Under the pieces are notes generated by a model. That model worked only from the letters and a program-made list of their open reading frames with translations. It did not search any database and was not told where the DNA came from. Below are positions 36,584 to 40,314 of a stretch of 64,000 nucleotides of DNA, one piece after another. Made by a program: the position numbers and the translations under genes. Every line of letters begins with the position of its first letter. Positions within the stretch are counted from its first letter, which is position 1. Origin of the DNA: Clostridia bacterium (GTDB taxonomy: Bacteria > Bacillota > Clostridia > Oscillospirales > SIG627); the NCBI GenBank assembly GCA_017517325.1, contig JAFWZW010000018.1, forward strand, positions 8,061 to 72,060. Direction: 5' to 3'.

Positions 36584-38368
36584 TTAAAAGAATATTTCGA
36601 AATCGGAATCGGCACCGTCACCCGTTTCTTCCGCAGCTTCAGGCATTTCCAAAGCGGAATCCACCTGAGTAGGAACGGTAGCCGCTGCAGAATCGGGGAA
36701 ATAAACCGGAATAAACCAATTTTCAGGCTTTTCATCCGACTTAAAGGTATGAACGTAAACGGTTACAGGGCCTTTACCCACCTTTTGGCAGATCTCAGCG
36801 GTAGAGGGTCTTTCAACAGAATGAGTCCCGTCGGGGCAATCACAAATCACCTCCAACGCGCAAAGCCTGTTCTCCAAGGGAAGATGGGGAGTAAACACGT
36901 GAATGTTATAAGAAAACGCCTTTTCGTAAGCTTCGTGCTCTAAAAGGCCGATCATCTCATACAAGCAACCTTTCAATTGGCTGAGTTCATAGGCTCTTGC
37001 GGGGTGGGAAGGAAAGAAATCTATTTGAGAAAGAACGTTCTCCATAGTGGTAACTTCTGCGTTATCCACCTTCAGGTAGTAGTCGCTTGGGCAAATGGGA
37101 TAAAAACGGCTGGAGGATCCGTAAAGGAACAACCAGGCAAGATTTCCAGAATTTTTCATCACCCTTTCCGCTTCAGCCTTATAGATTTTGCGGCAAATTT
37201 CAAATTCGGTGGTATCAAAAAGGAAAAAGTCAAATTTTTCAACGGCACAGCCGTTTTTCTCTTCTTCCGGCAAGCCCTTTAATATGGATCTCAGTTCTTT
37301 TTCGAAGTTCGCGAGGGTGATGCGGTTGGCAGGGTCGAACATCGTTGCCTTCCGAAACAGAGAACGGATCTCGGGACACTTCGTTTCAACCTCCGACCAG
37401 TTGGCATTGATCTCATGTCCTTGAATCACCTGCTCCAGCCAGTTTGGGGAAAGATGAACAGGGTCATCCTCATACTGCTTATGAATCTCCCGCAAACGAC
37501 CCGCAAGTTCCGAGGCATTGGTAATGCCCACGTCCAGAACGTCAAAAAACATAGAAAGCGGATTCTTCGTTTCCTTATAAGACCAGATACCAAAGATCTC
37601 CACCAGCATCAGCCCCAAAGCAAACACATCGATCTTGGAGGTGCGCGTCATTCCACGTACCACATCCTCAGGGGCTGTGTTGTTACGCGAAAACGCCGTC
37701 TCCACCGTTGCATCCGGATCCTCTTCTTCATCCGAATATTTTAGTTTGATAGATGGAAAATCAATAAGGCGCATTGTTTTTTTGCCCTTTTCATCTTCTT
37801 CCACCATTACGTTTTTGAATTTCAGATCCCGATGGGCGATCACGTTGGTATCGGCAATGGGTCCCTGGGCCATCAATTCCTTCAGACCGTTGATGATCTG
37901 AAGCATACAGTCGATTTTTTCTGCCGCCGTAGAAAAATTAAAATCCGAAATCGATTTATAAAAAGGCTCGATCACCATACAATTAAAATCCTTATACTCC
38001 GGCGTTTCAAACACATCCAGCGCCCCGGAACGGATCTCTTCTTCCATTCTTTTTGCATCGTCGTTTTGAGCCAGCACCTGACGGAGATTTTTCCCTTTGA
38101 AATTGAAAAAATCCCAAAAATGGCGGCTTTGGGGAAGACGCTCTTCCTCAAAGGGAAATTGGATCCTCACCTTTTTCAGGCAATACTTACGGTCAAGTTC
38201 GCAGCCGACGGGTGCCGATTTGTTAGAAAATTGCCCGTTTCCACAAAAAGTACCTGCGTAGATCTGCTTACACCGCTCATCGGGGGTAAGTCTTTTTTCT
38301 ACGGTAAACGTATATTTTTGATTGTTTTGTTGAAAGCAGATGGTTTGCTTTACCTCAATTGTACCCAA
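36584..38368 (-). CDS. Hanks-type serine/threonine protein kinase with an unassigned C-terminal alpha/beta domain
   Basis: Catalytic loop AHRDLKFKNVMV, DFP in place of DFG (LIDFPSIK), APE (TAPEDV) and the subdomain IX-like DVFALGLML. TTG start 7 nt after GGAGG. The C-terminal ~210 aa are not recognisable and end in an acidic tail. Confidence 0.8.
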   Translation of the reverse strand: MGTIEVKQTICFQQNNQKYTFTVEKRLTPDERCKQIYAGTFCGNGQFSNKSAPVGCELDRKYCLKKVRIQFPFEEERLPQSRHFWDFFNFKGKNLRQVLAQNDDAKRMEEEIRSGALDVFETPEYKDFNCMVIEPFYKSISDFNFSTAAEKIDCMLQIINGLKELMAQGPIADTNVIAHRDLKFKNVMVEEDEKGKKTMRLIDFPSIKLKYSDEEEDPDATVETAFSRNNTAPEDVVRGMTRTSKIDVFALGLMLVEIFGIWSYKETKNPLSMFFDVLDVGITNASELAGRLREIHKQYEDDPVHLSPNWLEQVIQGHEINANWSEVETKCPEIRSLFRKATMFDPANRITLANFEKELRSILKGLPEEEKNGCAVEKFDFFLFDTTEFEICRKIYKAEAERVMKNSGNLAWLFLYGSSSRFYPICPSDYYLKVDNAEVTTMENVLSQIDFFPSHPARAYELSQLKGCLYEMIGLLEHEAYEKAFSYNIHVFTPHLPLENRLCALEVICDCPDGTHSVERPSTAEICQKVGKGPVTVYVHTFKSDEKPENWFIPVYFPDSAAATVPTQVDSALEMPEAAEETGDGADSDFEIFF

Positions 38369-38394
38369 TGGAAGTCCTCCTTGCTGATCCTACG

Positions 38395-39195
38395 TTAAAC
38401 GCCTTTTTTAATGCGAACCGCGATCATGGACGTATCGTCCTTGCCACCCGCGTTCACAACGCTCTCGTACACCTTGACGCAGAGCTGCTTCATATCTTCA
38501 CGGTTTGAGAAAACGATTTCATCAAGCACCCCTTCATCCAACGTAGAAAGGGCGCCGTCACTCCCCAAAAGCAAAACGGAATCCTGAAAAAGGGGGTGCC
38601 TTTGTACAAAAACGTCAGCAGGATCCAGAAGAGAACGAGCCCCACCTACCACGCGGTGCAAAACGTTTTTCCGTTTGTAATGCTTTGCTTCCGCCTCGTT
38701 CAGCTTGCCGTTTCTTGCAAGGATCGCACCTTCGCTGTGGCTGGTGTATATATCCTTGATCGAGCCGCACATCAGATCCGTAAGGCGAACAGGGGAATCC
38801 CCCACGTTGGCAACGTACACCGCATCCTCAAACACGATGGCCATACTCACAGAGCAGGCGCAATTTTCGTTAGGATACTCAAACAGCAATTGATCGGCAG
38901 AAAGAATGGCGTTTTGCATCAAAGAAAAAAAATACTTGGTACGCCCTTCTTCGTCGGTAGCGGCAAGAGAATCCGCATCCACCATAAGGGGAGCTACGGC
39001 GCTCCTGATCTTTTTTTGTGCCAGAGCGGAAGAAAGGGCGGGGTTTGCGGTACTGACTCCGTCGATCACGCAGAAAACACCGAACCGGGTCAAGGACGCC
39101 GGAGCCGTATTAAAAAGCAGGTAAAACGTCTTGTCGCCGTTTTCCTCATGGGCAAGTTTACGGGAAAAATGAAAAACGTCTTCAATATAAAGCAT
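38395..39195 (-). CDS. PP2C-family serine/threonine phosphatase
   Basis: VFCVIDGVSTA, YVANVGDSPVRL, LLLGSDGALSTL and GGKDDTSMIAVRI blocks. Confidence 0.8.
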   Translation of the reverse strand: MLYIEDVFHFSRKLAHEENGDKTFYLLFNTAPASLTRFGVFCVIDGVSTANPALSSALAQKKIRSAVAPLMVDADSLAATDEEGRTKYFFSLMQNAILSADQLLFEYPNENCACSVSMAIVFEDAVYVANVGDSPVRLTDLMCGSIKDIYTSHSEGAILARNGKLNEAEAKHYKRKNVLHRVVGGARSLLDPADVFVQRHPLFQDSVLLLGSDGALSTLDEGVLDEIVFSNREDMKQLCVKVYESVVNAGGKDDTSMIAVRIKKGV

Positions 39196-39201
39196 CGCTC
39201 T

Positions 39202-40314
39202 TTACTCGTCTTCTTCAACGGTTGATTCGGTATCCTCTTCTTCGATCAGTGTTGCCTTCTGAAACTTATCCGTTACAGCGGAAAAGAAGTCGGAAACACC
39301 ATCCATTCCCTTTTTGAGAAACGGAATGACCTTTTCCGCTTTTTTTGCAAGATCTTCCTTTTCTTTCCCATCATCCTCCAGAGTATCTCCGCCCGGGATC
39401 CGATCTCTTTTTTTCTCGTTGCCGGTGGGAATGCGATCGCGGGAGATCCCGGTGCCCGTTCCGTGAGAATCAAAGGAGAAGGATCTGCCTTTTTGATTCT
39501 CGTATTCGTAATTATCATCCATATCGATCTTCAGATCACGGATCAAAGCTTCCAGCCCCGGTCTGCGATATTTCAAGGGAGAAAGGCAACGTTCGATGCA
39601 CATTTCCTGAGACTCAAAGGCCTTGTCGGTGCCGCCGGGATACTTGGCATAAAAATAAAAATATGCCGCCATATAAAGATCGGTAGAAACGTCTGCCCCG
39701 GGAGTAAAAAGCTCGCCGGGCATACCTGCATACCCAGGCTTAACGGGAACCGGCAGAGGCAAAAGCATTACGCTGATCTTCTCGCTTTCATTTTGGGGAA
39801 CAGAGACGTAGATGCAATCCTTGCACAAAAATCCAAGAGGTCTGTAGCCGCTTTCGTGGATGGCACTGCGGTTATACTGAAACAAAATTTTCACAAGGCT
39901 TTTAAATACCCCCGATGCGTGATCCTGCTGCTGATTTTCAGACAGCTTGGAAAACTGCACCCACTTCCTATCCTTGGGGAAAGAAAAGCTGTATACGGCG
40001 TATTCATCCACCATACAAAAGCCTTTGAGAGCGGCAAAGGCACCACTGTTCTCCTCATCAAGCAAGGCGAAAGTATTTTTGATCTTTTCCAGATGCACTT
40101 CGTTTTCCGGCGTTACGGCAACGTTGATCCGTTCTCTGGGAACGCCACCGATCACCGGCTTCGTTTGAAAGACCCTACAGCCCATCAGGTTTTGTTCTCC
40201 GTCAGCCTCGATCTGAGGTCTGGTAAATTCGCACGGAGTTATACCGCCGAATGCACCGGCGGAAGCTGCAGCTCCGTTTCCGCTTTTTTCCTTCTGAGTA
40301 AAATCAAATCTCAT
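39202..40314 (-). CDS. kinase-like (probable pseudokinase) protein with an acidic tail
   Basis: Kinase C-lobe-like spacing (PLGFLCKDCIYV where HRDLKxxN would be; GMPGELF; STDLYMAAYFYFY) but no HRD, DFG or Gly-loop. AGAGGTG RBS. First gene of the operon. Confidence 0.4.
   Translation of the reverse strand: MRFDFTQKEKSGNGAAASAGAFGGITPCEFTRPQIEADGEQNLMGCRVFQTKPVIGGVPRERINVAVTPENEVHLEKIKNTFALLDEENSGAFAALKGFCMVDEYAVYSFSFPKDRKWVQFSKLSENQQQDHASGVFKSLVKILFQYNRSAIHESGYRPLGFLCKDCIYVSVPQNESEKISVMLLPLPVPVKPGYAGMPGELFTPGADVSTDLYMAAYFYFYAKYPGGTDKAFESQEMCIERCLSPLKYRRPGLEALIRDLKIDMDDNYEYENQKGRSFSFDSHGTGTGISRDRIPTGNEKKRDRIPGGDTLEDDGKEKEDLAKKAEKVIPFLKKGMDGVSDFFSAVTDKFQKATLIEEEDTESTVEEDE

Follow-up and report, generated by a model that had tools for sequence, protein, structure and literature searches.

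A pseudokinase, an optional PP2C phosphatase and a kinase with a probably vWA-like C-terminal domain head a predicted nine-gene operon of Clostridia

We have analysed three adjacent genes in a 64,000-nucleotide stretch of contig JAFWZW010000018.1 from a Clostridia bacterium of the Oscillospirales (this whole stretch is called 'the window' below and all positions refer to it). The genes are three co-directional minus-strand open reading frames (ORFs) within 36584-40314, of 370, 266 and 594 amino acids (aa), and they stand at the head of a predicted operon whose order is pseudokinase, PP2C phosphatase (not always present), kinase, transmembrane protein, Zn-ribbon GTPase, GAP1-like transmembrane protein, membrane-anchored FHA protein, SEDS protein and class-B penicillin-binding protein (bPBP). 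The closest description is provided by the GAP1-N2 DO-GTPase conflict systems of Kaur, Burroughs, Iyer & Aravind 2020 (eLife 9:e52696; PMC7159879). The third theme of these systems, predicted by comparative genomics and stated to be restricted to Actinobacteria, places an active kinase, an active PP2C and a standalone vWA protein next to the GTPase-GAP1 pair (PMC7159879). The operon is best described as a Firmicutes variant of this theme, and we think it reasonably likely that it is such a variant, nine genes long, with a pseudokinase, a kinase-vWA-like fusion and an optional PP2C. The features of the head module are as follows.

40366..40393, minus strand: sigma-70-type promoter-like site, TTGACT-16-TGnTATAAT with an extended -10 (pattern scan only, 11/12 matches)
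40314-39202, minus strand: gene 1, pseudokinase, 370 aa
39505..40227, minus strand: kinase-like fold of the pseudokinase, aa 30-270 (structure model; column counts in 70 sequences)
39205..39501, minus strand: disordered Ser/Thr/Gly-rich linker (272-337), helix (340-356) and acidic tail of the pseudokinase (structure model and sequence)
39195-38395, minus strand: gene 2, PP2C-type Ser/Thr phosphatase, 266 aa, cytoplasmic, predicted active
38368-36584, minus strand: gene 3, kinase with C-terminal alpha/beta domain, 594 aa
37253..38368, minus strand: kinase domain, aa 1-372 of the 594-aa protein, with an atypical N-lobe (Pfam Pkinase, structure model and Foldseek, column counts)
36671..37246, minus strand: C-terminal alpha/beta domain, aa ~375-566, ~190 aa, probably of vWA fold with a degenerate MIDAS (structure model, hhalign)
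36587..36670, minus strand: low-confidence acidic C-terminal tail of the kinase (model confidence <50 for 571-594)

The three ORFs are confirmed as real, tightly packed and conserved genes. Homologues of all three, with 20-82 % identity, occur in the same order in more than 20 independent loci from metagenomes and metagenome-assembled genomes (MAGs), so they are not chance ORFs. This bears out the three genes at the head of an operon described in an earlier reading of the window made from the sequence only (the sequence-only reading). Genes 1 and 2 are separated by 6 nucleotides and genes 2 and 3 by 26, and six further minus-strand genes continue unbroken from the kinase down to 29670. The promoter-like site lies ~50 nucleotides upstream of gene 1, whose ATG at 40314 is preceded by a ribosome-binding site, AAAGAGGTG. 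The kinase gene starts with TTG, ahead of which stands a Shine-Dalgarno sequence, AAGGAGGA. Judged from these signals, the head genes and those downstream are predicted to be transcribed from one promoter as a nine-gene operon. No transmembrane segment was found in any of the three head proteins.

The 370-aa product of gene 1 has no sequence match in Pfam, NCBIfam, PADLOC or the PDB. A word-based search with it returned one close relative only, while a full HMMER scan seeded by five operon-derived orthologues retrieved 94 family representatives (50 % clustering). By these searches the pseudokinase family, with 94 representatives and no Pfam, NCBIfam or PADLOC model, is uncatalogued. All members examined in context lie in the same operon type, and so do the distant relatives. 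Recognition of the fold needed structure prediction, since sequence profiles alone were not significant: Pfam applied to 70 members gave a single Pkinase match (E 0.038), and hhalign found no significant similarity to the neighbouring kinase family, whether 5 or 70 sequences were used. The AlphaFold2 (AF2) model, built on the 70-sequence alignment, has a pLDDT (predicted local distance difference test score) of 78 overall and above 90 over residues 30-270. In a Foldseek comparison with the PDB every one of the 50 best matches is a protein kinase or pseudokinase (E 2e-8 to 5e-7; TM (target) 0.43-0.64), the highest-ranking being the JH2 pseudokinase domains in JAK1, JAK2 and TYK2 (E 2e-8, ~265 columns).

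The residues required for catalysis are lost throughout the 70 sequences. The HRD position is occupied by Y157-R158-P159, with Pro159 in 58/70 sequences and Asp in none. L185-P186-L187 stands in place of DFG (P186 in 69/70), only 9/70 sequences have Lys at the variable beta3 position 68, and the catalytic-loop Asn is also replaced. Conservation persists at the structural PxE, at the alphaF Asp (D212, 70/70) and at the subdomain-XI Arg (R251, 68/70). Gene 1 is, on its predicted structure, a catalytically dead kinase-fold protein, that is, a pseudokinase, as had been suspected from the absence of HRD and DFG. An origin by recent duplication of gene 3 was considered and rejected because the profile-profile comparison was not significant. 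Beyond the fold, pLDDT falls below 50 over aa 272-337; a helix is predicted at aa 340-356 and the protein ends in the acidic tail EEEDTESTVEEDE. Helix and tail are kept among orthologues, and linker and tail together are a candidate phospho-acceptor or docking region. A 2026 preprint (bioRxiv 10.64898/2026.09.18.752743) and the KINtaro database describe a Lachnospiraceae-derived 'LACHP' pseudokinase family and a 'LACHF' kinase family associated with a phosphatase domain, which may or may not be the families of this operon.

In the product of gene 3, Pfam Pkinase matches residues 140-352 (E 2.5e-13), and the AF2 model (pLDDT 79) finds its best Foldseek matches among eukaryotic-type kinases (GAK, AAK1, JAK1 and Abl2 among them; ~360 columns, E 1e-9), with a coverage that includes the N-lobe. 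The motifs HRDLKFKN, DFP and TAPE are present in the translation, as are the strands FDFFLFDTT and IHVFTP listed in the sequence-only reading; the acidic tail that it listed is likewise in the translation of gene 1. In all 29 homologues, a set that reaches the Lachnospiraceae versions at ~27 % identity, K65, [H/Y]RD (D181), K183, N186, D203-F204, TAPE (with P233-E234), D247 and R349 are invariant. DF is followed in these homologues by Pro, Ala or Ser and never by Gly. The GxGxxG Gly-rich loop is absent from the kinase; an invariant K34 lies in the corresponding loop, before strand 35-40. No invariant Glu that could serve as the alphaC Glu is found between K65 and E134, a region in which R82 and D86 are invariant. 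The activation loop carries an invariant Thr221, a candidate autophosphorylation site. Gene 3 is predicted from its alignment and model to be an atypical but catalytically complete, active-looking cytoplasmic Hanks-type Ser/Thr kinase, in agreement with the earlier description of an active-looking kinase with DFP and no GxGxxG.

The extreme C terminus of the kinase varies. Most orthologous kinases end in a basic stretch followed by GFxF[IV]GG (alignment columns 690-744), and those of Lachnospiraceae in GFYVGxGALY...YV. In the window kinase and its 82 % relative the tail is acidic instead (...SDFEIFF) and may be a swapped docking peptide.

Gene 2 is predicted from its conserved residues to encode an active-looking cytoplasmic PP2C Ser/Thr phosphatase, as had been proposed. 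The 266-aa protein matches the NCBIfam Stp1/IreP model with E 1.7e-20, yet far below the equivalog cut-off of that model, and falls 1.3 bits short of the Pfam PP2C cut-off (19.0 bits against 20.3). In the PDB it matches MspP of M. smegmatis (2jfr, E 8e-9) and also aligns to the Stp1 structure. N19, D21, D45-G46, GSDG211-214 and D253 are invariant in 10 homologues, so that the metal-binding Asp of motifs 1, 2, 8 and 11 (D21, D45, D213 and D253) are all conserved. No PADLOC model matches it.

The phosphatase is a facultative component of the operon. Its gene is present in the window, in three Oscillospirales-type loci (L004, L028 and L029; loci are identified by L numbers) and in all Lachnospiraceae loci (L032-L037). 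It is absent from ten Oscillospirales-type loci (L001, L003, L021, L022, L024-L027, L030 and L031); in these the pseudokinase and kinase genes are immediate neighbours.

The C-terminal domain of the kinase is probably a vWA fold. The AF2 model confirms the alpha/beta architecture that had been guessed from its hydrophobic strands, with the elements b379-385, a389-407, b410-416, b418-420, a442-449, a465-475, b485-492, a small hairpin, a523-529, b536-541 and b553-556. Strands and helices follow one another as in vWA, with both the b2-b3 hairpin and the helix behind the 'Thr-loop' present. We compared a profile of the domain (the 29-sequence alignment) by hhalign with profiles assembled from genome hits to Pfam families. 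The score was 30.4 (P 4e-4, Prob 35 %) against a PF00092-derived vWA set of 28 sequences and 30.1 (P 7.7e-4) against an independent PF13519-derived set; the two halves of the PF00092 set gave 26.3 and 23.8. The decoys HAD, CheY and DJ-1 scored 16.0, 14.2 and 12.8, and the families of the operon itself 12.1 (GTPase), 12.1 (GAP1-like protein), 13.3 (pseudokinase) and 9.3 (PP2C). The reversed alignment scored 11.6, and column- or block-shuffled alignments 10-15 with a maximum of 21 in 150. With very small vWA alignments hhalign is not significant, and the comparison is informative only with larger profiles.

The alignment with vWA comprises 154 colinear columns in which b1, b2, the Thr-loop, b4, b5 and b6 are in register. 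'FLxDT' falls on the DxSxS strand, S463 on the loop of the Thr of the metal ion-dependent adhesion site (MIDAS) and 'IHIFTP' on the strand of 'LTDG'; b5 and b6 of vWA are matched by the final two strands of the domain. A HAD-like reading of 'FLFDTT' was rejected: the HAD alignment is out of register and has the low score given above.

The MIDAS itself (DxSxS...T...D), which the sequence-only reading proposed to look for in homologue alignments, is degenerate and not conserved. The corresponding region reads D385-T-T-E-F, in which only the first Asp is kept; D385 is present in 23/29 sequences and is replaced by Asn in Lachnospiraceae. S463 (23/29) occupies the Thr position and 'IHIFTP' has no Asp at the TDG position. 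The Lachnospiraceae domain is homologous to that of the window but even less MIDAS-like, and no Pfam-detectable, more canonical vWA was found at the same position in the Lachnospiraceae kinases. The domain has no Cys/His clusters and no OB-like all-beta barrel that would indicate a Zn-ribbon or OB fold. Metal sensing by the domain is unlikely because the MIDAS residues are not conserved; if it is a vWA it would be a non-metal protein- or peptide-binding module.

Several observations weigh against the vWA assignment. The hhalign probability is only 25-35 %, and an unrelated decoy pair, vWA and DJ-1, reached a score of 22, so that unrelated alpha/beta folds can score in the low 20s. Five Lachnospiraceae sequences alone gave no vWA signal in hhalign. 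A PDB profile search with the domain returned only a designed helical protein (E 0.12), and Pfam applied to 17 members gave a single VWA_3 match (1/17, E 0.019). Foldseek with the whole kinase model (PDB and BFVD) lists kinases only. No standalone relatives of the domain, vWA-annotated or otherwise, were found in a search of 5.8 billion proteins, and the MIDAS is not conserved across the 29 sequences. These points favour a different Rossmann-like alpha/beta domain, possibly a family-specific novelty, in which case the likeness to a vWA triad would be superficial. We regard this as possible but clearly the less likely alternative. Two independent vWA profiles reach ~30, a score at which no control arrives: none of the seven control families exceeds 16 and none of the 150 shuffles exceeds 21; all six strands of the colinear alignment are in register; the model shows the hairpin and helix typical of vWA; and vWA is the partner expected from comparative genomics (PMC7159879). 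The sequence-only reading had named one outcome that would count against it, a C-terminal domain unrelated to vWA together with a 370-aa protein devoid of kinase-fold similarity. What was found is a kinase fold in the 370-aa protein and, in the kinase, a domain for which vWA is the most likely fold.

Downstream of the head module the operon continues with the following genes.

35633..36553, minus strand: multi-transmembrane protein, 306 aa, with a Lys-rich linker, next after the kinase
34437..35639, minus strand: Zn-ribbon P-loop GTPase, DO-GTPase-like
32883..34427, minus strand: GAP1-like protein with two C-terminal transmembrane segments
32328..32870, minus strand: FHA-like protein (phospho-Thr reader), 180 aa, with an N-terminal membrane anchor (GR...S-x-HA...GD-x-hhhGNT motifs)
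29670..32335, minus strand: pair of a divergent SEDS protein (FtsW/RodA) and a class-B PBP transpeptidase, additional to the housekeeping SEDS

The GTPase family shares C9/C12, C102/C105, G134-K135 (GxxxxGK(S)) and D205...E209 (DxxGE) as invariant residues. Pfam DO-GTPase2 is matched by 5/17 of its members (best E 8.4e-4), the protein of the window giving no match. Among 15 GAP1-like proteins three match GAP1-M (best E 1.7e-4; 0.073 for the protein of the window) and one matches GAP1-N2 (E 0.04); the position of the gene downstream of the GTPase and the C-terminal transmembrane segments fit GAP1 proteins. One Lachnospiraceae orthologue of the FHA-like protein matches Pfam FHA (5.5e-10) and two of eight members match the FHA-like Yop-YscD_cpl.

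More than 20 loci keep this gene order; they come from MAGs of Acutalibacteraceae, Oscillospiraceae, Eubacteriales and Lachnospiraceae. Where the contig extends far enough, the pseudokinase and kinase are never found without the downstream DO-GTPase, GAP1-like, FHA, SEDS and bPBP genes. A distant version of the operon in locus L146 (L146:4188-5543 and L146:5573-7597) has a PP2C of 451 aa, nearly double the length, and, at the position of the kinase, a 674-aa protein with no Pfam hit on record; in view of the latter the head module diverges strongly between lineages. In the window a 504-aa ORF followed by an overlapping 305-aa ORF (24981-27291, minus strand) lies on the operon strand 2.4 kb downstream of the bPBP gene.

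With these partners the resemblance to the third GAP1-N2 theme covers several features. Like the published systems, the operon encodes a Zn-ribbon GTPase, here putatively of the TRAFAC type, with a Walker-B Glu; the protein encoded after it is a candidate GAP1 protein and ends in transmembrane segments. Both also have a Ser/Thr kinase and a PP2C that are active or active-looking and a vWA or vWA-like module, and action at the membrane or cell wall is predicted for both. Kinase, PP2C and vWA are all represented here, the vWA as a fusion with moderate support and the PP2C as an optional gene. The differences are also clear. The published theme is actinobacterial whereas this operon occurs in Clostridia (Oscillospirales and Lachnospiraceae). 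Here the kinase itself bears the vWA-like domain, which has no MIDAS, and carries no Zn-ribbon, beta-rich or transmembrane fusion. In addition, a pseudokinase gene always comes first, the PP2C may be missing, FHA, SEDS and bPBP genes are appended, and the Pfam DO-GTPase and GAP1 matches are sub-threshold.

The operon is a rare, patchy, accessory and mobile element of gut and rumen Oscillospirales and Lachnospiraceae. Two of 61 related genomes have the kinase and none of 36 from the same family does; the pseudokinase occurs in 2/400 genomes of the class. A plasmid collection contained no relative of either. The genome carries a canonical SEDS and a canonical Hanks kinase elsewhere (the operon SEDS scores 113 bits and the canonical SEDS of the genome 333 bits). 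Divergent from the operon lies the following gene.

40555..46452, plus strand: superfamily 1 (SF1) helicase-nuclease, a candidate defence protein, 1965 aa (PADLOC PDC-S37 1164 bits, Hhe 567 bits)

This PDC-S37/Hhe-like helicase is linked to the operon in 10/14 Oscillospirales-type loci. It lies divergently upstream in the window and in L003, L021, L022, L025-L027 and L029, and directly after the bPBP gene, on the same strand and with no gap, in L028 (L028:18392-21454) and L030 (L030:18174-21431), where it looks like a tenth operon gene. The kinases of the helicase-linked loci are only 31-40 % identical and the linkage takes two arrangements, which suggests that the link between operon and helicase is functional rather than a chance co-location. 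The PADLOC matches of the kinase are confined to the MkoA, mad6, PD-T4-6, PglW and C3a189 kinase models. In one MkoA model (PDLC03920) the N-terminal part recognises the kinase (E 2e-14) and the C-terminal part the adjacent helicase (E 2e-25). A known defence protein therefore unites the two as a fusion, a hint that they also act together here. Mokosh MkoA thus combines, in one protein, a kinase and a COG1112-type SF1 helicase that are both present here. It differs in that the two are separate, divergently transcribed genes in the window, there is no PLD nuclease partner and the matches are at the domain level only.

TIR proteins adjoin the orthologous operons in L003 and L004. In L004 there are two TIR_2 proteins beside the operon (L004:4384-6183 and L004:6238-7995, both minus strand). 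One of them, of 599 aa, has a faint FtsW/RodA/SpoVE hit and may be a SEDS-like-TIR fusion. In L003 a TIR-SecA-like protein of more than 1700 aa lies beside the helicase.

The domain identities and conserved residues described above can be arranged in an order of events that we infer to be the following. The pseudokinase would pair with the kinase as an allosteric partner or substrate scaffold. A signal received via the vWA-like domain, the GTPase/GAP1 membrane switch or both would activate the kinase, with Thr221 as the candidate autophosphorylation site. Phospho-Thr on operon partners (for example, the pseudokinase linker or the Lys-rich linkers of the transmembrane and GAP1 proteins) would be read by the membrane-anchored FHA protein, which would gate the dedicated SEDS-bPBP synthase and possibly the neighbouring helicase-nuclease. 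Where present, the PP2C would reset the switch.

Some points weigh against this reading of the operon as a variant GTPase conflict system. The defence role that we infer draws on neighbourhood and phyletic pattern only. The Pfam links of the DO-GTPase-like, GAP1-like and FHA-like families all lie below curated cut-offs, and the three head genes are not an obligatory unit since the PP2C is missing from many Oscillospirales-type operons. A set of FHA, PP2C, kinase, SEDS and bPBP proteins also fits ordinary cell-wall regulation. The main non-defence rival is accordingly a housekeeping or developmental cell-wall module, a Clostridial counterpart of the actinobacterial fhaA-to-pknB operon that would tune a specialised SEDS-bPBP pair (for example, in sporulation or growth mode). 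In Actinobacteria the cell-wall operon fhaA-fhaB-pstP-rodA-pbpA-pknA-pknB is core, universal in the phylum, and has PASTA-domain kinases. The pseudokinase domain of MviN and FhaA form a pseudokinase-FHA switch, and in the present operon the pseudokinase would likewise be a likely phospho-dependent docking site for an FHA protein. Both operons unite FHA, PP2C, Hanks kinase, SEDS and bPBP genes; here, the membrane components all point to the envelope and there is no classical toxic effector domain.

We nevertheless judge a cell-wall module of this kind unlikely. The present operon is a rare accessory element, with no PASTA domains, built on a GTPase/GAP1 core and accompanied by defence-gene neighbours. 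Its distribution is extremely patchy (absent from all 36 same-family genomes and from all but two of 400 in the class), and the canonical SEDS and Hanks kinase are retained elsewhere in the genome. Linkage to the candidate defence helicase is conserved in both gene arrangements and TIR neighbours are present. The families that the GTPase and GAP1-like core resembles are described from conflict systems only (PMC7159879).

Very unlikely, in our view, is the arrangement to which the sequence-only reading had pointed: a stand-alone antiphage triad of TerY-P type, with the vWA of TerY fused to the kinase and acting as a metal-sensing phosphorylation switch independent of the downstream genes. No separate vWA gene was found in this or the orthologous operons, the C-terminal domain of the kinase being the sole candidate. 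The kinase matches PADLOC models for MkoA, mad6, PD-T4-6 and PglW, and no TerY-named model matches the pseudokinase, PP2C or kinase in PADLOC 2.0, which presumably holds TerY-P models. The TerY-P triad (Anantharaman et al. 2012; Gao et al. 2020, as described in PMC11090510) consists of a TerY-like vWA protein, a PP2C and a Ser/Thr kinase fused to a Zn-ribbon (ZnR) or OB fold, the latter being the form in the tested antiphage versions. TerY-P-like modules are reported to be antiphage and the triads are often attached to UPF1-like helicase systems (PMC11090510). Points of agreement are the vWA, PP2C and Ser/Thr kinase logic, with the PP2C adjoining an active-looking kinase whose C-terminal domain is probably vWA-like, and a defence-island context that includes an adjacent SF1 helicase of the UPF1-like kind. 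However, the head genes are not a member of this group because two defining features are lacking (there is no separate TerY, and the kinase has neither of the Zn-ribbon and OB fusions that are hallmarks of the triad), many orthologous operons do without the PP2C, and PADLOC gives no match to a TerY-named model. The MIDAS is degenerate, a pseudokinase has been added, and the genes are part of a larger operon rather than a self-contained three-gene unit: in loci with enough sequence the pseudokinase and kinase never occur without the GTPase and GAP1-like genes.

Combinations of kinase and pseudokinase are known from eukaryotes. The cereal immune receptors Lr9 (PMC10260399) and Pm57 (PMC11153570) are tandem kinase-pseudokinase proteins with a vWA fusion. 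They share with the Clostridia operon the set of kinase, pseudokinase and vWA domains and an immune context, and the JH2/JH1 pairs of the JAK family share with it the JH2 domains that are the best structural matches of the 370-aa protein. In the operon these domains are split over two genes and there is no detectable sequence relationship, so the likeness is convergent at most; by analogy with the JAK pairs the pseudokinase may regulate the kinase. A far-reaching version of the conflict-system reading, which we put forward as a doubtful speculation by analogy, is that the decision head of an undescribed Clostridia anti-phage or anti-mobile-element system could be formed by the pseudokinase together with the kinase-vWA-like protein, reset by a PP2C where one is present. 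This would be a split-gene analogue of the cereal kinase-pseudokinase-vWA receptors. In place of a classical toxin it would deploy a private SEDS-bPBP peptidoglycan synthase, alongside a ProA/Hhe-type helicase-nuclease, so that infection would trigger remodelling of the wall or containment.

A functional link to the helicase-nuclease would mean that a cell-wall synthase serves as an immune effector or works beside one; we know of no bacterial defence system for which this has been shown. The finding would be of high importance only if both the defence role and the cell-wall output were demonstrated. Residues K65, D181 and T221 of the kinase, D21, D45, D213 and D253 of the PP2C and R69 of the FHA protein provide handles on the wiring of phospho-signalling, GTPase switch and peptidoglycan synthase. 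What is new here is an uncatalogued pseudokinase family and a probable kinase-vWA fusion. With them the kinase-PP2C-vWA theme, predicted only in Actinobacteria, would extend in rearranged form to the Clostridia of gut and rumen.

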